A stretch of DNA of 64,000 nt from Candidatus Thorarchaeota archaeon (GCA_029858305.1 JAOUFI010000003.1:15788-79787); one strand, 5' to 3'; positions 31,085 through 41,232 are shown, counted from the stretch's first letter. Program-made: numbers and translations. The notes: generated from the sequence alone by a model not told the origin.

Positions 31085-31906
31085 ATGACCGAAGACATAA
31101 GCTTGGAGAACTCGTCTGGCTCACCGATTTCTTTTTCATATTTGAAAAAATTCAATATCTATGCCGGTGTTCTTCATCTAATAACTGGAATACTCATGCT
31201 ATTCTTGGGTTTAAATTTGGAGTGGGAGCAGGATGTTTATGCCTTCTATCTCGATTTTCAAATACTTCCTGTTGATCCATTCTTCGTAGTGCAACCGACA
31301 CCTGTTGTCATATTCACACTTTCATACATCGGAGTGATTCTGGCATCATTCCCGTTAATGTCAGCTCTAGCTCATTTCTTAATCGCGTTTCCACTGAAAG
31401 ACAAGTATGTGGCAAATCTCCAGAAAGGTATGAACCCATACAGATGGTATGAGTATGCAGTATCAAGCTCAGTGATGATTTTCCTGATCACATTCCTCTT
31501 GGGAATTTGGGATATATGGTCACTTGTGATGATTGTTGTTCTGAATGCTATGATGATTATGTTCGGATATCTAATGGAGTATGTTAATCAGTATACAGAG
31601 AAAACTACCTGGAAACCTTTCATATTAGGATGCATTTCTGGTGGAACACCTTGGGTTGTCTTATTCGGATATTTCGCGGCCGCAATTAGTGCTGCAGAAA
31701 CCAATCCTCCAACCTTTGTGTACATTATCATATTCATGTACCTAATCCTCTTCAACATCTTTGCACTGAATCAATTCCTGCAATACAAACGAGTCAGTAA
31801 ATGGAAAGACTATCTCTATGGAGAACGAATGTACATTATTCTAAGCTTGATTGCGAAAACTCTACTTGCATGGATTGTTTTTGCTGGAATATTTGCACCA
31901 TTCTAA
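31085..31906 (+). CDS. heR: Heliorhodopsin
   Basis: Seven TM helices, TM1 His (GVLHL), TM2 His (SALAHF), NPYRWYEYAVSSSVM (counterion Glu), FALNQFLQY, YLYGERMYIILSLIAKTLLAW (SLxAK retinal Lys). Confidence 0.95.
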   Translation: MTEDISLENSSGSPISFSYLKKFNIYAGVLHLITGILMLFLGLNLEWEQDVYAFYLDFQILPVDPFFVVQPTPVVIFTLSYIGVILASFPLMSALAHFLIAFPLKDKYVANLQKGMNPYRWYEYAVSSSVMIFLITFLLGIWDIWSLVMIVVLNAMMIMFGYLMEYVNQYTEKTTWKPFILGCISGGTPWVVLFGYFAAAISAAETNPPTFVYIIIFMYLILFNIFALNQFLQYKRVSKWKDYLYGERMYIILSLIAKTLLAWIVFAGIFAPF

Positions 31907-33278: not shown

Positions 33279-35168
33279 CTAGATGATGCCGAAGTCATCC
33301 AATTCCGTGGTGGAATCCTGCTTCAGAGCCAATTGATATGCTGGTTGCATCATCTCAGCAGTACTCTTCTTTGTGAGCCTAAATGGCGCCTCCGTCTGCC
33401 GAATCAAGCCTCTCTCCACGAACTCCCTCATATCTATTGGTAGCCAGATTTCACTGAAGTGATCCTTTAGATCGTAGTGTGTAATCTCATCCTCTTTTTC
33501 GAGTAATCTCTTGACTGGTTCGATAAAGGTCTTCAAGTGTTCATCTAGGTAGCATTCCATCTTCTCCAAAACAGTTTCAACGAGGTCAAATGTTTTCTTT
33601 GGAGCATGAACAAACTCAGTGAATATTGAATTGAAGAATTCTGGATTGAACTCCAATGCTTGAGCAGTAGACTCTCGTAACGGAATTGCCCTATTCAGAA
33701 GAACCTCAATGTTTGCCATGCGACGTATTCCAGAGGTCATGAAGTTGAGTGCGAAGTGAGGGTCATCTTTTACATCGAGCGCTTTGTATGCCTTGTTGAT
33801 CAGGTCCTTGCAAAAGACATAGTTGAGCAATAACAAGTTCTCAAGGTCTCTGGAGCCTATGTTCTGGAGGTCTTCATAGAGATCATGAATCGTGTCATCT
33901 CTAGTGAACAGTAACGTACTCTTTGAGAAGTACGAATGGAAAATGCTTCCATCTCTTACTCTGTGAACCAATTTTCGAAAGGCATCTCGTGTGAAGAGAT
34001 AGGTATCAACATAGACATCCTTCTCAACTAGCGCCTTGTAATGCTGATAGATGTCGTCTCTTGTAACAATAAGTACATCGAGGTCTGACTTTTCCCAGAC
34101 TGTATCGTAGGATAGACTTCCCGCGAGCATGAGTGAAAGGACATATTCATCAGTCTTCACCTTCTGCACTAATTCTTCAGCTGCCACTCTATAATCATCC
34201 TGTACTTGCTTGCGTTCCACCTTCGAAGGTCCAACTAGAGTTGGTATAACCTCATCAGGAAGGAACGACTTCCAATTGAAGTGATACTGAGCCTCATTAT
34301 ACTCAACCACTCCTTTCTTGGTGATTTTAACTGGATTGATAGTCCGACGGAGAATTCGACGCCTGTGCAAGTGCTCAAGGTCTATGGTTTCCCAGCCACC
34401 CTGAGCGAATCTATCGTTTATCTCTGTCTGCGTAGCCGTACCTTCATTCTCGGAGATGAAGTCTAGTACAGGCTTGTAAATGTCAAGGTCAAGTGTATCA
34501 AGAAACTCATACGATTTCCTTAACGTTCGTTCAAGAGATTCGTGCGTCACTTTTGTATCAATGAAACCATCAAAAAGCTCGGGAAAGAGGTCTGGTTTGA
34601 GCTCCCTTCCTCGAAGGATGACTTCTCTGGGGGGGTAGATATCATTCAAGTAGCACAACAAGTATCCTAATTCGCTTAGGGCATGTATAAGAAAATGAAA
34701 ACTGTGCGGGAGGTCTCTCTTGATATAGAGATACTTCTCTGACTTTGAGAGGTCGTATCGCACGGCAAGGTCGTATCCCATCTGTTGTAGCTGACGGTCT
34801 CGTGTACCAACATTCTTGTTCAGGTTTTTGTAGAAATCAGTCAGTGAGCAATCTCGTGAGAAGACCAATTTACTATATGTCAAGAATTGCAGCAGTCCAA
34901 GACCTCTTGGTGATTGAACATGTCGCATAAAGTCATCACGACTATAGATTTGCACGTCGATTGGAACTCCAAATTCGACAAGTCTTGCTGTGCGGTGCTT
35001 TCCATCATCTGTTATGACGAAAGCATTTATGTTAGACCGCTCGGTGACCTCATCGTAAGCCATACTTCCGTAGACGATGATTCCCAGGACGTGTGTGTCC
35101 TTCTTCGCTCGGGCGATGAAGCTTGACAAAGCATCATCGAACTGCTTCCGTACTTGCGGATCTTCCAT
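33279..35168 (-). CDS. Tandem-duplicated Pol-beta-type nucleotidyltransferase-like protein
   Basis: Two homologous halves: YGSMAYDEVTERSNIN and AGSLSYDTVWEKSDLD (GS..DxD), each followed by a helical domain. ATG 35168 follows GGAG (ORF track starts at 35177). Confidence 0.75.
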   Translation of the reverse strand: MEDPQVRKQFDDALSSFIARAKKDTHVLGIIVYGSMAYDEVTERSNINAFVITDDGKHRTARLVEFGVPIDVQIYSRDDFMRHVQSPRGLGLLQFLTYSKLVFSRDCSLTDFYKNLNKNVGTRDRQLQQMGYDLAVRYDLSKSEKYLYIKRDLPHSFHFLIHALSELGYLLCYLNDIYPPREVILRGRELKPDLFPELFDGFIDTKVTHESLERTLRKSYEFLDTLDLDIYKPVLDFISENEGTATQTEINDRFAQGGWETIDLEHLHRRRILRRTINPVKITKKGVVEYNEAQYHFNWKSFLPDEVIPTLVGPSKVERKQVQDDYRVAAEELVQKVKTDEYVLSLMLAGSLSYDTVWEKSDLDVLIVTRDDIYQHYKALVEKDVYVDTYLFTRDAFRKLVHRVRDGSIFHSYFSKSTLLFTRDDTIHDLYEDLQNIGSRDLENLLLLNYVFCKDLINKAYKALDVKDDPHFALNFMTSGIRRMANIEVLLNRAIPLRESTAQALEFNPEFFNSIFTEFVHAPKKTFDLVETVLEKMECYLDEHLKTFIEPVKRLLEKEDEITHYDLKDHFSEIWLPIDMREFVERGLIRQTEAPFRLTKKSTAEMMQPAYQLALKQDSTTELDDFGII

Positions 35169-35186
35169 CTGCAACAACTCCTACTC

Positions 35187-38018
35187 TCAGGAAGATACCA
35201 CAACACTTTGGAGGAACTTGCCAGTGTAAGACTTCTCACACTTGATTATGTCTTCTACGGTGCCCTCCGCGATGACCTCTCCACCTTCGGCTCCACCTTC
35301 AGGGCCAAGATCTATCACCCAGTCCGCGGACTTGATGATATCGAGGTGGTGTTCAATGACGATAACAGTGTTTCCCGCGTCCACAAGCCTATTGATGGTC
35401 TTCAGAAGCATCTGGATGTCCTGCATATGAAGACCCACACTGGGTTCATCCATAATGTACAGATTATCCTTCAGCTTCTTCAGTTTTCCAAGCTCCTTTG
35501 CAAGCTTGATTCTCTGGCTTTCGCCTCCTGACAAAGTTGGCGCAGGTTGTCCAAGTTTGAGGTATCCCAGCCCAAGCTCCATCATGGTCTTTGTCTTGTG
35601 TCGGATGAGTCGTACATCCTTGAAGAACTCGCAAGCCTCCTCAACACTCATGTTTAGGACATCTCCAATGTTCTTCCCATTGTACTTGATTTCAAGTACT
35701 TCTTCAGAGAAGCGAGCCCCCTTACACACGGGGCAGACAGTCTGTATATCGGGCATGTACTGCAATTCTATGCGAACAAGTCCCTCGCCGTTACACTCCA
35801 CACATCGCCCTTCAGTAGAGTTATAGCTGAATCGCCCAATGCTGTATCCACGTTCCTGTGCCATCTTGGTGTGAGTATAGAGACTCCGTATCTTGTCAAA
35901 AAATCCAACATACGTTGCTGGCGTCGACCTTGAATGCCTTCCAATGGGTGACTGGTCCACAATCCTGACATCAGAGATATTCTCAATTCCTTCGAGTCTC
36001 TCGAGTTTTCCAGGGAGGATACGAGGGTCATTCATATCATGAAGGAGCTTGTTCCCAAGGACATCCTCGATCAAGGTGCTCTTGCCCGAACCGCTCACTC
36101 CGGTGATACAAATGAAGACACCGAGGGGGAACTCCACTGAGATATTCTTCAAGTTGTTCTCCGTGGCTCCAACAACCTTCAGAGTCTTTCCATTCGGCGC
36201 TCGTGCTTTGCCGAGGTACGGAATGCTCTTCGTCCCAACGATATACTTTCCAGTCAAGAACTTGGGATTGTTGAGAATCTCTTCCAGCTGACCCTGAGCG
36301 ACAATCTTCCCTCCGTGCAGACCAGGTCCAGGTCCTATCTCTATGATATTATCAGCCTGTTTGATAGTTGCAAGATCGTGTTCAATAACTATCACAGTAT
36401 TGCCCGTGTCCCTTAGGCGTTTCAGAATGTCCACTATTCGGTTACTATCTCTCATGTGGAGACCTATACTAGGTTCATCAAGCACGTACAGCATTCCCAT
36501 TAGTTCAGAACCCAGTTGAGTCGAGAGCTTGATTCTCTGAGCCTCGCCCGCGCTTAGAGTCCTTGCTCGCCTGTTGAGTCGGAGGTAATAGAGACCAATG
36601 TCTATGAGGAGTTGGATACGTTTCCGCAACTCACCAATGACCTGATTCCCTGCCTTCTCTACATCTTTGGGGACTTTTATGGAATCTGCAAACTCCAGTA
36701 ACTGATTGATAAACAGCTCACCAAGTTCGTCGATATTCCTCCCATCCACAGTGACAAGGATTCTCTGCTTGATGAGCTTCTGTCCCTTACAGTCTGGACA
36801 GAGATGCTCTGCCATTATCTTCCTATACCACTCATAGTGTTCACCCTTCTTCCGGTCATGCTTGTAGAACCTGTCAATATAATTGCAGACACCCATGTAC
36901 CGGACCTTCTTTCCCACATCACGATGCCTGTATTTGTTAGGCCAATCCGGAGGCTCTTGAAGTATGAACTCCTCCTTGATACCCCATAGTATCTGATGCT
37001 GAATATCCTCTGGAAGTTCTCCAAACGGAGTGTCCATATCGAACCCCAAATGCTGGCTAACGCTGTACATCCAATACTTGGCATACCACGCAAGAGCCCC
37101 GTGTTTCAGGCTCTTCTTTGGGTCAACGATGATAAGCCTAGACTCCGCCTTCAGGAGTGTACCAACACCAAGACAAGTGGGACAGGCATTCTCTGGCAAG
37201 TTTGCTGAGAATGCTCCAGGAAGAAGTTTGTGCATAATGATATGATGGTCTTTACACCCAAAGCCCTTGTAGAACTTCTCCAATACATCATCAGTGACAT
37301 TTTCATCTAGTTCGAACCGGATGAATCCGCTACCAACATTCTTAGCGTTCTCTATAGAAATCGCAAATTGATGATACAAGTCTTGCTTAATGATGATTCT
37401 ATCGACAAGAACCTCAATCCGATAGTCTTTGTCCTCATCCAGCTCTATCTTGTCATTGATGCTGAATGGTTCACCATCGATTCGAATCCGTTTGTACCCT
37501 TTTTGTCGTATCTCATCGAACAGGTAAGGATAGTCCTCATCATAGAACTTGTTCACTGGAGCAAGAATCTCAACACTTGTCCCCTCAGGTAAAGTCATGA
37601 GGTGATCAACAATTTGGTTTGCATTACGTGTGTGGACCTTCCTATTGCAGTAAGGACAATGAGCTTGCCCTAGAACTGAGAAGAGAATTCTCATGTAGCT
37701 TGAGATATCAGTCATTGTCGATACAGTAGACCTTGGATTAAGAGTCCCAGTCTTTTGTTCGATTGCGACGACTGGTGACAATCCAATGATGGAGTCTACA
37801 TCAGCACGCTCTAGCATGGGCAACATGGTTCGAGAAGTTGCTGACATTGATTCGAAGAACCTGCGCTGCGCTTCACTGAAAATAACGTCAAAAGCTAGCG
37901 AAGTTTTTCCCGACCCCGATAAACCCGTGATGACGGTCAGTTTATCGCGGGGGATATCCACATCGATATTTTGTAGATTATTTGTCCTAGCACCCTTTAC
38001 ACTAATGTATTCTCTCAT
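35187..38018 (-). CDS. uvrA: Excinuclease ABC subunit A-like ATPase (UvrA, divergent)
   Basis: [53 protein letters not shown], zinc motifs CPYC, CPTC/CPDC, CVEC/CPVC. Confidence 0.92.
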
Positions 38019-38219
38019 TCATTCATGCCTCCCTACATCAGTTCAACCCAGTGCCTCCCTATGACAGGTTACAACGACCCTATGAGAGTTATCGGGCCTG
38101 ATGATAGCTTGAGGTTTCTCACGATATGAGAAAGTGTTCTGAGCGGGACTCGAATCGTATTTAGAAGGTTCGATTTCAGCAGGATATTCGAATAATTAAA
38201 AGGAGGAAGTCAATGAGTG

Positions 38220-38282: not shown

Positions 38283-38735
38283 ATGACTTCTGATGAAGTG
38301 TTTGAAGCAATATCGCACCCGATGAGAATTGCTATTCTGAAGGAATTGGCTAAGAAACCAATTCGATTTGCTGATCTCAAACGGAAATTAAGAATCAAGA
38401 GTGGCGGACTCTTGGACTTTCATCTCAAGAAAATGGAGGCAGTAATAATCACTGATAAGGACGGGCTCTACACACTGAATAATCGAGGATTCGCTGCTCT
38501 TCGTGCAGTTCACATTGTTACAAATTATGGCTGGCAGAGAAGATCATGGTGGCTTAATGTATTGATGATGTTTATGCTTAACATCTACTTCTTCTTTACA
38601 GCGTTTGAATTTTACATCTTTGTAGCAATTCCGACATTTGGTTGGCTTCTTTTCTATAGTTACTGGACCTTTGTGAAGCGAAGAGTTAGTCTAAGAAGTA
38701 ATGGTGCAGACCAAGAAAATGTGGAGGTATCATGA
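38283..38735 (+). CDS. ArsR-like winged-helix regulator with two C-terminal TM helices
   Basis: VFEAISHPMRIAIL, FADLK..GLLDFHLKK, YTLNNRG, then hydrophobic helices. Confidence 0.8.
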   Translation: MTSDEVFEAISHPMRIAILKELAKKPIRFADLKRKLRIKSGGLLDFHLKKMEAVIITDKDGLYTLNNRGFAALRAVHIVTNYGWQRRSWWLNVLMMFMLNIYFFFTAFEFYIFVAIPTFGWLLFYSYWTFVKRRVSLRSNGADQENVEVS

Positions 38736-38806
38736 TTTGAAATTTTGGCGTTGTTGTGAAATAATATATTCATTCTGTCGAAAAAATTTGTACTCGAAGG
38801 AGAATC

Positions 38807-39592
38807 TTGAATTTGGTAGCTGTCAGTGTTGAGAGACTTGTAAAATCGTTTGGAAGTCTGGTAGCAGTAAATAATGTCACGTTCGAAGTACGCGAGGGTG
38901 AAATCTATGGATTACTTGGACCTAATGGGGCAGGCAAAACGACGACAATAAAGTGCCTAATGGGACTCTTGGATCCTGATAGTGGTTCAACCCATATTTA
39001 CCATGTGAATTCTCTAGAGAATCCAATTGAGGCCAAGAAACTTGTAGGCTATGTGCCCGAAGAGCACCAGCTCTATGACTCACTGACTCCGCGTGAACTG
39101 TTCGAATTCATTGCTTCAATTAGACAACTTCCTAAAGATAAAACTAACAAACGCATTGGAGAGATGGTGAAAGCACTCGATTTCGAGAAGTATTATGATT
39201 CAATGATTGTGACACTCTCGCAGGGGAACAAACAGAAGACAATGCTAATCTCTGCTTTACTTCATGCGCCAAAGCTCCTTATTCTTGACGAACCATTCTC
39301 GGGACTTGATGTAAGGACATCTAAGATAATCAAAGACATCATCCAGATTCATGTGGACAATGGAGGCTCCGTTCTTCTGTCTACGCATGTCATGGAAGTC
39401 GCTCAGGGACTTTGTGATCGAGTAGGGATTATTGACGATGGCGTATTGGTAGGTGAGGGAACACTATCTGAACTCAGAGCTCAGGCAAAAGAAGAGAGTG
39501 CTACTCTTGAGAAATTATTCCTCCGCCTTACAGAGCAGGAAGAGGAGGTCCAGGTCGGTGTCGATGCTCTTCGGGAGGCACTCTCAGAATGA
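38807..39592 (+). CDS. ABC transporter ATP-binding protein
   Basis: GPNGAGKTT, LSQGNKQK, LILDEP. Confidence 0.92.
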   Translation: MNLVAVSVERLVKSFGSLVAVNNVTFEVREGEIYGLLGPNGAGKTTTIKCLMGLLDPDSGSTHIYHVNSLENPIEAKKLVGYVPEEHQLYDSLTPRELFEFIASIRQLPKDKTNKRIGEMVKALDFEKYYDSMIVTLSQGNKQKTMLISALLHAPKLLILDEPFSGLDVRTSKIIKDIIQIHVDNGGSVLLSTHVMEVAQGLCDRVGIIDDGVLVGEGTLSELRAQAKEESATLEKLFLRLTEQEEEVQVGVDALREALSE

Positions 39593-41232
39593 ACTTCAGA
39601 GAGCGCTGGAGATTAGCAGGCATCATTGCACTACAGATGAGATTCGATGGGTTTCTCAAGAACAATCCTGGAAATATGGCTCGGATAAAGGAAAATCCTG
39701 AGAAAATCTCGAGAAGTATTCGATCTTCAAGCAGGGTGAACAGCATTCTGAGTGTCTTCATGATTATCATGTTGGCAGCACTCACTATTGGTGTCACTGG
39801 TTTCGATGCCTCAATTGGAGACCTCAATGTCCGACTTGCTGTAGGATTTTCATTCTTCATGGTTCTTGCCTTTGTCTTAATTTTCCTCCTAAATCTCACA
39901 ACTACAACTGGATTCTTTACATCCGGGGCTATGAAATTGCCAAGTATTTTACCTCTTAGTAGAAAGGAACTTGAGAGCCTTGCAGTACTTGCATTTACAC
40001 GCGTCTTCATTGCTCCAGCTATCCTCACCGTTACATTGTTCCCAGCGGCGTGTTTTGTTCTATTTGGGCCATTAGCAGGTTTTGTTGCGCTTATTGGATG
40101 TCTTGCCACGGTCTCAGTATCTCTACGTTCGTTGATTGGGTTCTCACGATGGTTCGAAACCAAGATGCTCTCATCAGATGAGTCGAAGATTGGGACTATA
40201 GTGAGGATAGCAGCCACTATAGGGCTTGTTGTTGGAATCATGAGTGTCTATATGCTGTCCAGCTACATCCCGTATATTGTTCAAGGAGTTATCATGTTCG
40301 CAGAATCTTTCAATGGAACATACTTGGTGCTCTCAGTCCTTTTTCCATTCTCATTTGGTTTCTTAGCCTCAGCTGTGACGCCAGGAGTAACTTTTCAAGA
40401 TTTGATGATTCCTTTGGTTTCAGGGGGTATGTCCCTCCTATATGGTTTGATTGCATTAGTATTCTATAGACAAAGCGGAAAATTGCTAAGGGGTCTTGCT
40501 ATTGGAGGAGTTTCAACAGGAAGAACTGGGCCACTGAGAGAAATTAGCATCGAAACGCGAACGCCCATAATAGCAGTAATTCGAAAAGATTTGAAGATGG
40601 CTACAAAGAGTGTTGGATCAGCAATCGTCTATGCAATTCCAATCTTTCTGATGATCATGTTGTATCCAATGATAAGAGGGATGTCACAAGACGGGCCGCT
40701 CCACAGCATCACTGCAATGACTGCGATAGCATATGCTAATCTCTTTGGGGGACTAACCGTGGTCTCAGTGATGATGTTTGATACACAAGGGGCGTCTATT
40801 CATGAGGGATTGCCCCTGAGTTCAAGACTAGTCCTTAAAGGAAAAACTGCAATCTCTATCATTCCATACACCATGACAATGCTGTTTATCGCCCTCTTGC
40901 TCTCTTTGTTTAATCCAATTACACCACTTGTCATCCTTATACCAATTTTAGCTATACCACTCGGATATGCAGTACCGATGTCTGTCGGAGCAGCCATGTA
41001 TCGCTACAAGGGAGGTGGTCGTGCTGTAGCTATCAATCTAGCTGCTGACCAAAAAATGGCGTTGATCGCAGGATTTGTAGGAGCAGTTGTAGGACTTGGG
41101 CCTCTTCTCGGATTTGGGATTGTCATGATAATGACAGGTTCACAGATTTTCAGTTTAGCAACTCAAGCACTTGTCACATTTGGCATCGTTTTAATGGCAC
41201 ATTTCCAGATTCCAAAGCTCCTCAAGGATTGA
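39589..41232 (+). CDS. ABC-2 type exporter permease (duplicated, ~14 TM)
   Basis: ATGA overlap with the ATPase gene, polytopic, RKDLK and LPLS motifs. Confidence 0.75.
   Translation: MNFRERWRLAGIIALQMRFDGFLKNNPGNMARIKENPEKISRSIRSSSRVNSILSVFMIIMLAALTIGVTGFDASIGDLNVRLAVGFSFFMVLAFVLIFLLNLTTTTGFFTSGAMKLPSILPLSRKELESLAVLAFTRVFIAPAILTVTLFPAACFVLFGPLAGFVALIGCLATVSVSLRSLIGFSRWFETKMLSSDESKIGTIVRIAATIGLVVGIMSVYMLSSYIPYIVQGVIMFAESFNGTYLVLSVLFPFSFGFLASAVTPGVTFQDLMIPLVSGGMSLLYGLIALVFYRQSGKLLRGLAIGGVSTGRTGPLREISIETRTPIIAVIRKDLKMATKSVGSAIVYAIPIFLMIMLYPMIRGMSQDGPLHSITAMTAIAYANLFGGLTVVSVMMFDTQGASIHEGLPLSSRLVLKGKTAISIIPYTMTMLFIALLLSLFNPITPLVILIPILAIPLGYAVPMSVGAAMYRYKGGGRAVAINLAADQKMALIAGFVGAVVGLGPLLGFGIVMIMTGSQIFSLATQALVTFGIVLMAHFQIPKLLKD

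Follow-up and report, generated by a model that had tools for sequence, protein, structure and literature searches.

The stretch of DNA analysed here (the window, 64,000 nucleotides from a Candidatus Thorarchaeota archaeon; GCA_029858305.1, JAOUFI010000003.1:15788-79787) carries at positions 33279-38018 a uvrA paralog, followed by the gene of a nucleotidyltransferase (NTase) that consists of two fused homologous halves. The source is an Asgard archaeon, and Thorarchaeota is the name attached to close homologs of the two proteins. Both genes lie on the minus strand and are arranged as follows:

35187..38018 (-): uvrA paralog, 943 residues; full-length class I architecture, assigned to an NTase-linked UvrA subfamily
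35178..35186 (-): spacer from the uvrA stop to the NTase start, 9 nt if counted to TTG, 18 nt if counted to the ATG at 35168; contains GGAG
33279..35177 (-): fused two-half NTase, 632 residues from TTG or 629 residues from the ATG at 35168

The open reading frame (ORF) of the NTase starts with TTG; the ATG lies three codons in, and the database version of the protein has 629 residues. A first-pass annotation, made from the sequence of the window, had described uvrA followed within ~20 nt by a protein of ~630 residues, which agrees with the measured gap of 9 nt (TTG) or 18 nt (ATG). Directly 5' of the uvrA start codon, two copies of TAGGGAGGCA are present ~20 nt apart (window ~38025-38062, minus strand).

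Conservation of the pair in archaea and bacteria

NTase relatives were found at E ≤1e-10 in 40 of 400 Asgard genomes, that of the window included. The two-half form occurs in 15 Asgard genomes, and in all 15 loci a UvrA 79-88% identical to that of the window ends just upstream (for one of these UvrAs, the edge of the locus leaves just the last 26 residues visible). The match to the two-half NTase is broken by a TAA stop in G081 and G086 and split in G085; the stop-bearing copies look like decaying ones. In G081, an alpha/beta-hydrolase gene is present between uvrA and the fused NTase (L051:9855-10691, minus strand). NTase fragments at contig ends or with stops, with no UvrA visible, were found in G359, G348 and G365; these are uninformative and stand outside the counts. 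The single-half form (311-325 residues) shows the opposite gene order: UvrA begins just downstream in 12/12 Asgard loci, with the stop and start codons of NTase and UvrA shared or abutting. The UvrAs of these loci are 42-60% identical to the window UvrA over the part held, and 50-54% over the full length. Among Asgard loci with 8-10 kb flanks, a full-length UvrA is adjacent in 16/16 (4 double, 12 single).

Metagenomes were scanned using an alignment of 22 single-form proteins as query, and 80 loci were kept, with a GC content ranging from 0.43 to 0.72. UvrA follows on the same strand within 250 nt downstream in 50 of the 80 loci, and 516-1783 nt downstream in 4; another 22 were too short to judge, so that UvrA is found downstream in 54 of 58 informative loci. 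Locus L113 has a UvrA that matches, at 100% identity, a protein named Chthonomonadaceae bacterium. Searched against 1.84 billion library representatives, the NTase family yields 1598 matches at E ≤1e-3, of which 550 reach ≤1e-10 and 184 reach ≤1e-30. The names on these matches include Chthonomonadales and the cultured bacterium Paenibacillus sacheonensis, and another cultured bacterium, Oceanirhabdus sp. W0125-5, is named on a UvrA-type match; for each of the two cultured bacteria the match is to one protein of the pair. The pair thus occurs in three layouts, namely single NTase before UvrA, fused NTase before UvrA, and UvrA before fused NTase as in the window. A search of gene neighbourhoods for uvrA with this NTase family, as suggested in the first-pass annotation, thereby returned a conserved two-gene module, and comparison of the loci points to a conserved, co-inherited operon in Asgard archaea and bacteria.

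The NTase-linked UvrA proteins

The UvrA of the window scores 1090.3-1090.5 bits on TIGR00630, over the curated family threshold of 729.8, and 1130.8 bits on the stricter equivalog model NF001503, slightly below the cut-off of 1147. Residues 2-940 align with the solved UvrA 9gxk (949.7 bits), and Pfam places UvrA_inter at 133-236 (E 3.6e-25) and UvrA_DNA-bind at 294-388 (E 3.2e-14). The Walker A motifs read GLSGSGKT and GVSGSGKS and the signatures of the ATP-binding cassette (ABC) read LSAGE (first) and LSGGE; D514/E515, H547, D857/E858 and H890 are invariant in UvrA alignment A4. Zinc modules 2 and 3 have four invariant cysteines each (C279, C282, C407, C410 and C739, C742, C762, C765), and zinc module 1 is of the C3H type (C121, C124, C255 and H258). 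By these motifs and alignments the protein is shown to be complete, with both ATPase sites, three zinc modules, and the UvrB-binding and insertion domains. A truncated, class II UvrA of the DrrC type (a type that the first-pass annotation had named) was rejected, because the UvrB-binding and insertion domains are retained and the alignments with the class II, DrrC-like structures 2vf7 and 7sh1 do not begin until query residues 269 and 278.

The genome assembly (3.04 Mb, 205 contigs, 88.9% complete) holds three UvrA genes above the family cut-off, of which the window copy, on contig C148, scores lowest. The other uvr genes are found on contig C32:

C32 39657-41606: uvrB, canonical repair locus
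C32 41699-44452 and 44590-47352: two tandem uvrA genes, directly after uvrB
C32 52317-54029: uvrC, ~5 kb beyond the tandem uvrA genes

Canonical-locus sequences were those of loci L001, L002, L009 and L011. Within the genome, uvrB and uvrC were found only on C32 and none on C148, in line with the first-pass observation that neither accompanies the window uvrA. The separate uvrABC set that the same annotation proposed to look for is therefore present, and the window UvrA is an extra copy and not the sole uvrA of the genome. The two full-length tandem UvrAs of C32 differ from each other and are placed in two separate canonical clades. Of 5 other carrier genomes, 4 possess UvrB together with a further full UvrA.

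The relation of the linked to the canonical proteins was assessed with a tree of 57 UvrA rows (quick IQ-TREE search with Shimodaira-Hasegawa-like approximate likelihood ratio (SH-aLRT) support only). One half of the tree, supported at 100, unites all 16 NTase-linked Asgard UvrAs with bacterial UvrAs named Anaerolineae, Planctomycetota, Chthonomonadaceae, Oceanirhabdus and Thermotogota. The other half contains 23 canonical Asgard UvrAs, the two C32 copies among them, together with UvrAs from clostridia and spirochaetes. The phylogeny thus places the linked UvrA outside the canonical half, on the question raised by the first-pass annotation. Residues were then compared between 41 linked UvrAs (5 double-linked, 11 single-linked and 25 from metagenomes) and 29 canonical ones. 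Column 161 lies in the UvrB-binding domain and reads E in 41/41 linked UvrAs but G in 29/29 canonical UvrAs; column 258 is H in 40/41 and C in 29/29, respectively. The corresponding motifs of the window protein are:

37530..37550 (-): K-F-Y-D-E-D-Y, residues 157-163, in the UvrB-binding domain; subfamily motif at the position of RGRKGEY in 9gxk
37245..37256 (-): C-K-D-H, residues 255-258, second half of zinc module 1; C-x-x-H replaces C-x-x-C
36543..36557 (-): L-S-A-G-E, residues 488-492, first ABC signature; lineage-specific substitution

In alignment A4, K[IVFL][YFH]xE.. is present at the KIYGEDY position in 44/44 rows, and the C-x-x-H of zinc module 1 is kept in 42/44. Conservation of the UvrB-binding domain (residues 121-240), scored segment by segment, was 0.49-0.72 for linked and 0.54-0.61 for canonical UvrAs. 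Overall, tree and residues indicate that the linked UvrAs are a subfamily of their own, marked by E161, H258 and KIYGEDY. The LSAGE signature is not among these marks. The first-pass annotation had read it correctly; it is confined to 3 of 5 UvrAs linked to two-half NTases, the 36 linked UvrAs outside these five (of 41) have S/A-G-G-E, and LSAGE is thus a quirk of one lineage.

Double-length UvrA-like proteins (frames of 1631-1969 residues) were also observed, at L060:266-5161 (minus strand) and in G091 (contig C48), G019 (C14) and G032 (C110), genomes that also carry a linked UvrA; in L060 the double-length gene is two genes away from it. In one Asgard genus, the gene directly downstream of the linked uvrA, in the same orientation, encodes a protein of 304-315 residues without a Pfam match (L057:6058-6987, L058:13884-14798 and L059:6033-6980); it is unrelated to the profile of the NTase halves.

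Fold and active sites of the nucleotidyltransferase

The fused NTase is made up of the following parts:

34230..35168 (-): N-half, an NTase with inactive motif plus helical domain plus winged helix; matches ANT(4')-IIb 4ebj with Z 12.8, model residues 3-312
33282..34229 (-): C-half, an NTase with intact motif plus helical domain plus winged helix; Pfam Polbeta at 334-428, E 3.2e-10
35025..35069 (-): degenerate N-half motif G-S-x9-S-N-I-N, both catalytic Asp replaced by Asn
34077..34121 (-): intact C-half motif G-S-x9-S-D-L-D, followed by the conserved L-V-E-K-D

The halves are 28% identical over 304 residues (E 3e-34) and both end in P.(K/R)(I/L)TKK..........Y. The AlphaFold2 model (predicted local distance difference test score 91.1, predicted template modelling score 0.89) has an NTase, a helical and a helix-strand-strand part in each half. 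The two-half organization described in the first-pass annotation, each half with an NTase, a helical part and a winged-helix-like tail ending P...TKK....Y, is thus confirmed, as are its readings of SNIN in the N-half and GS...SDLD in the C-half.

Folds were compared with VIA-align, with which Foldseek agrees (kanamycin nucleotidyltransferase (KNTase)-like matches at E 3e-9 to 6e-7). The best match of the C-half is 3c18_A, named 'nucleotidyltransferase-like protein' (Z 18.0, 277/290 residues, model 325-615), the winged helix included, and the profile of NTase alignment A1 also matches 3c18 (E 3.1e-8). ANT(4')-Ia matches the C-half with Z 14.4-14.6 (6nmk, 6un8, 6p06 and 1kny; 236-241 of 252-253 residues aligned). 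Further matches are LinB (Z 11.1), the HEPN protein 2hsb on the helical domain (Z 10.7) and HalB (Z 9.5-10.4). The resemblance of the helical domain to HEPN 2hsb goes with a score of 16.5 on the MntA model (cut-off 60), and the Hailong anti-phage NTase HalB (NF051895) was rejected as an assignment at 22.3 bits against a cut-off of 190. In the Atlas, an NTase half lies near bacterial Pol-beta NTase clusters of 312 residues and the YgxA-like family (NTF-like, YgxA-like_sub_bind and HTH_52), clusters of the latter being among the feature neighbours at 0.89-0.92. In Pfam, the window NTase matches Polbeta and NTP_transf_2 alone, and PF14540, PF22339 and PF18576 gave no match at E ≤0.01; PF22339 is recorded for 8 of 72 listed NTase homologs. 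A Pol-beta domain followed by a helical, substrate-type domain, with GS...DxD in the C-half and not in the N-half, is the arrangement of a KNTase-like protein. The earlier designation as KNTase-type is right as a statement on the modelled fold; membership of the antibiotic NTases would go beyond it.

KNTase is a homodimer with its active sites built at the subunit interface. In the window clade, with the Hermodarchaeota protein P0067 included, both catalytic Asp are present in 0/43 N-halves and 41/43 C-halves, the exceptions being P0061 and P0062, which read SDIG. A distant clade of five fused proteins shows the reverse, a live N-half and a dead C-half. Ten cluster representatives of fused proteins were obtained as two-stretch matches in an exhaustive search, and 10/10 have exactly one intact G-S...S-D-x-D and one degenerate motif, 3 of them with a dead N-half and 7 with a dead C-half. 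The pseudo-dimer with one dead site, which the first-pass annotation had seen in the window protein, is therefore borne out and follows a rule in the fused representatives.

The tree of NTase halves and single forms (a quick search) places the N-halves and the C-halves of the main clade in separate groups, each supported at 100, which points to one old duplication. The halves of P0067 are sisters (support 100), as expected from a separate, younger duplication, and those of the reversed clade are found among bacterial single forms (support 96). Judged from these branchings, the NTase fusions would have arisen about three times. The UvrA and NTase trees yield matching groupings. In the metagenome locus L159, a reversed-type fused NTase with a dead C-half is followed by UvrA, so the UvrA link holds for independent fusions too. 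Residues of the helical domain that are conserved in single forms were compared as well, with regard to an active site built in cis or in trans: the dead N-half of the main clade has lost E171, Q186 and A187, and the live N-half of the reversed clade has lost K142 and Q186. From the one-live-site rule we infer that the working unit of the NTase is a dimer needing one catalytic centre; if one centre is enough, an asymmetric target or partner is implied.

Gene surroundings, possible function and known systems

The composition of the pair differs from that of its surroundings. With 45 window ORFs of at least 150 residues as reference (mean GC content at third codon positions, GC3, of 0.386, standard deviation 0.042), uvrA (GC3 0.517, z +3.14) and the NTase gene (0.491, z +2.52) rank as the top two. 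The gene GC is 0.466 and 0.440, respectively, compared to 0.371-0.387 for the genes of the 29.7-31.9 kb flank, so the GC difference that the first-pass annotation had seen by eye is real. Its suggestion of horizontal acquisition is plausible: the GC3 outliers, the patchy distribution in the source genus (the NTase is present in 7 of 27 other genomes, many of them incomplete) and a UvrA clade shared with bacteria together make transfer of the pair as a unit plausible, although codon bias could also raise the GC3.

The low-GC flank contains a heliorhodopsin gene (Pfam PF18761, E 4.8e-90; window 31085-31906, plus strand), ~1.4 kb from the NTase gene. Divergent from uvrA (window 38283-41232, plus strand) are a DUF7347/ArsR-like winged-helix gene (150 residues), an ABC ATPase gene (261 residues) and a gene for a 547-residue protein without a Pfam match. 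Clusters of the DUF7347 and ABC ATPase types are found ~4 kb from the pair in L049, followed by an ORF of 552 residues, and a DUF7347 gene is present in L048 too. The trio may be a separate regulated exporter and is not counted in the UvrA-NTase module. Two small RING-finger-domain proteins are encoded just 3' of the fused NTase in two genomes of family f13 (L050:6477-7575 and L051:6424-7465, both minus strand); the Pfam scan covered the L050 pair, and the L051 pair was assigned by membership of the same BLAST cluster.

Of the 12 Asgard single loci, 5 have a gene of one and the same cluster directly upstream, and 3/3 members scanned with Pfam have an ArsR-type helix-turn-helix and a GyrI-like ligand-binding domain. 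A hidden second NTase subunit was considered for the single-form loci and rejected: the neighbours of ~300 residues in clusters c2 (the ArsR and GyrI-like regulator) and c6 (without a Pfam match) fail the half-profile, with a best E of 0.045. The 31 same-strand flanking genes of bacterial pairs include three of the glyoxalase/bleomycin-resistance type, two TetR, and one each of MOSC/YiiM, a TPMT/TehB-like methyltransferase and DNA polymerase I; the remaining 22 are off-theme or without a Pfam family. Known defence or named families were not recovered by PADLOC and NCBIfam, which gave sub-threshold or generic matches only. For the NTase, PADLOC returned weak matches to PDC-S09 (E 2.9e-8) and CBASS cyclase (E 5e-4), and the match of the C-terminal half of UvrA to mad3 (E 1.3e-77) reflects general similarity to UvrA-type ABC proteins.

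That the uvrA-NTase module is a real functional unit appears highly probable. The contrary possibility, a lineage coincidence of functionally unrelated genes, is hardly credible; it is contradicted by the conservation counts, with adjacency in 15/15 and 12/12 Asgard loci and 54/58 informative metagenome loci over a GC range of 0.43-0.72. As to what the unit does, we lean, on balance, towards an operon that pairs a distinct and complete UvrA subfamily with a YgxA/KNTase-like NTase to form a UvrA-guided nucleotidylation module, perhaps directed against DNA-binding toxins. The UvrA paralog would find distorted or ligand-bound DNA, and the NTase, attached by its winged helices either to DNA or to UvrA at its altered UvrB-binding domain, would transfer a nucleotide to something at the site marked by UvrA. 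The most likely acceptor would be a DNA-bound small-molecule genotoxin, a tentative choice that is itself on the doubtful side, and less likely ones a DNA end or UvrA itself. In its boldest form, possible but uncertain, the proposal is a new DNA-surveillance system common to bacteria and Asgard archaea: UvrA would hand lesions or ligands to a KNTase-like dimer and not to UvrB, the dimer would tag the genotoxin or lesion with a nucleotide, and one centre would suffice as the complex is asymmetric.

Several observations weigh against UvrA-guided nucleotidylation of this kind. In L052 and L053, whose single NTases form the sister group of the fused clade, the motif is S-N-L-D with the first Asp lost, which is awkward if catalysis is essential. 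Neighbours of the detoxification type are a small and anecdotal set; the bacterial pair loci have variable flanks and lack a conserved third gene; and in 4 of the 58 informative metagenome loci no UvrA is seen downstream of the NTase although 600 nt or more are available there. The groupings come from quick IQ-TREE runs with SH-aLRT support only. Antibiotic NTases do not have the winged helix as a feature, so that its presence could suggest a target of nucleic acid or protein, and the conserved UvrB-binding domain means that the linked UvrA may, as far as its sequence tells, still feed ordinary excision repair.

The last two points lead to the main rival, which we consider rather unlikely: an accessory branch of ordinary excision repair, in which the linked UvrA loads UvrB and the NTase, with no small-molecule target, regulates UvrA/UvrB by nucleotidylation or processes DNA ends. 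Such a role fits a UvrA that is complete in its UvrB-binding and insertion domains, Walker A motifs, signatures and three zinc modules, with conservation of the UvrB-binding domain similar to that of canonical UvrAs. It also fits the UvrB found in the source genome and in 4/5 other carriers, winged helices suited to binding DNA or protein, and the DNA polymerase I gene directly downstream in L089. It is harder to reconcile with the subfamily-wide changes in the UvrB-binding domain (KIYGEDY versus RGRKGEY of 9gxk, and C-x-x-H at its base), with uvrB/uvrC never adjoining the pair in the 16 Asgard loci with flanks, and with closest characterised fold relatives that are small-molecule NTases, not polymerases or protein AMPylases. 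The fold of these relatives (KNTase/ANT/Lin-type) and the ligand-sensing regulators (GyrI-like, TetR) beside some loci would also suit two co-regulated resistance genes that act separately, an antibiotic NTase alongside a UvrA repairing or displacing drug damage, with no physical coupling. We regard this as improbable, because the stop and start codons overlap in single-form pairs, the UvrA and NTase trees are congruent, the linkage persists through a change of gene order and three independent fusions, and the one-live-site rule suggests an asymmetric complex. Defence against phages or plasmids, with a UvrA-like ATPase that senses foreign or modified DNA and an NTase that makes a nucleotide signal or tags the invader, is quite improbable. 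The weak PADLOC matches of the NTase (PDC-S09, CBASS cyclase), the mad3 match of UvrA, HalB among the fold matches (Z 9.5-10.4) and the patchy distribution within the genus speak for it; against it, no effector or other defence genes are conserved around the pair, the neighbours being metabolic or variable, HalB stays at 22.3 bits against its NCBIfam cut-off of 190, and the mad3 match is the general ABC similarity noted above.

UvrA is among the best-studied DNA-damage sensors, and its known partners are UvrB and Mfd. If UvrA-guided nucleotidylation is true, a UvrA subfamily hard-wired to an NTase of the antibiotic-modifying type would be a new output of damage sensing, or a new resistance to DNA-binding toxins, in a pair found both among many bacteria and among the archaea related to eukaryotes. 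The repeated fused enzymes with one live and one dead site would be a natural experiment on half-of-sites design, and the system looks directly testable, with cultured bacteria among the names on the matches. No paper describing the UvrA-NTase pair was found in open-access full text, a search that leaves subscription journals and unseen supplements outside.

Compared with class I UvrA (TIGR00630; 9gxk, 3zqj and 2r6f), the window protein has the same length and domain set, an end-to-end alignment, and both ABC and three zinc modules; it differs in being a third copy away from uvrB/uvrC, in its separate clade, in C-x-x-H and KIYGEDY, and in being encoded with an NTase. Class II UvrAs are without the UvrB-binding domain that the window UvrA has, and we know of no class II UvrA described with an NTase partner. 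The likeness to class II (DrrC, Ecm16 and D. radiodurans UvrA2; 2vf7, 7sh1) is that of an extra UvrA-family ATPase outside the uvrABC genes; that both may act against DNA-binding compounds is a suggestion of the first-pass annotation. UvrA-like proteins of the DrrC/Ecm16/UvrA2 type are reported to confer drug resistance (PMC9328131, PMC10192343). Within the Porphyromonas gingivalis operon uvrA-PG1037-pcrA, a second UvrA paralog is cotranscribed with a non-Uvr gene and tied to stress resistance (PMC3747172). As a precedent this operon was rejected: its UvrA is coupled with a SWIM zinc-finger protein of 67 kDa, after which comes the PcrA helicase, and 'nucleotidyltransferase' occurs 0 times in the paper (PMC3747172).

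On the NTase side, the MNT-HEPN pair consists of small separate proteins, the HEPN one with an R-x4-6-H RNase motif, whereas the window domains are fused in one unit of 315 residues with a winged helix; in a HEPN survey (PMC3710099), UvrA appears in the reference list only. The likeness to 3c18, taken here with the YgxA-like proteins (PF14540, PF22339, PF18576), is one of fold and extends over the NTase, helical domain and winged helix of the window C-half, the three Pfam models themselves giving no match; 3c18 itself is uncharacterised, and the open-access literature search found no paper on the function of the YgxA-like family. With ANT(4')-Ia and its relatives (ANT(4')-IIb, LinB, ANT(6), AadA) the window NTase shares the NTase and helical substrate domains, and G-S...D-x-D in the C-half. 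The identity to ANT(4') is just 10-12%, and the window protein is set apart by a C-terminal winged helix in each half, fused subunits, one dead site and its tie to UvrA.

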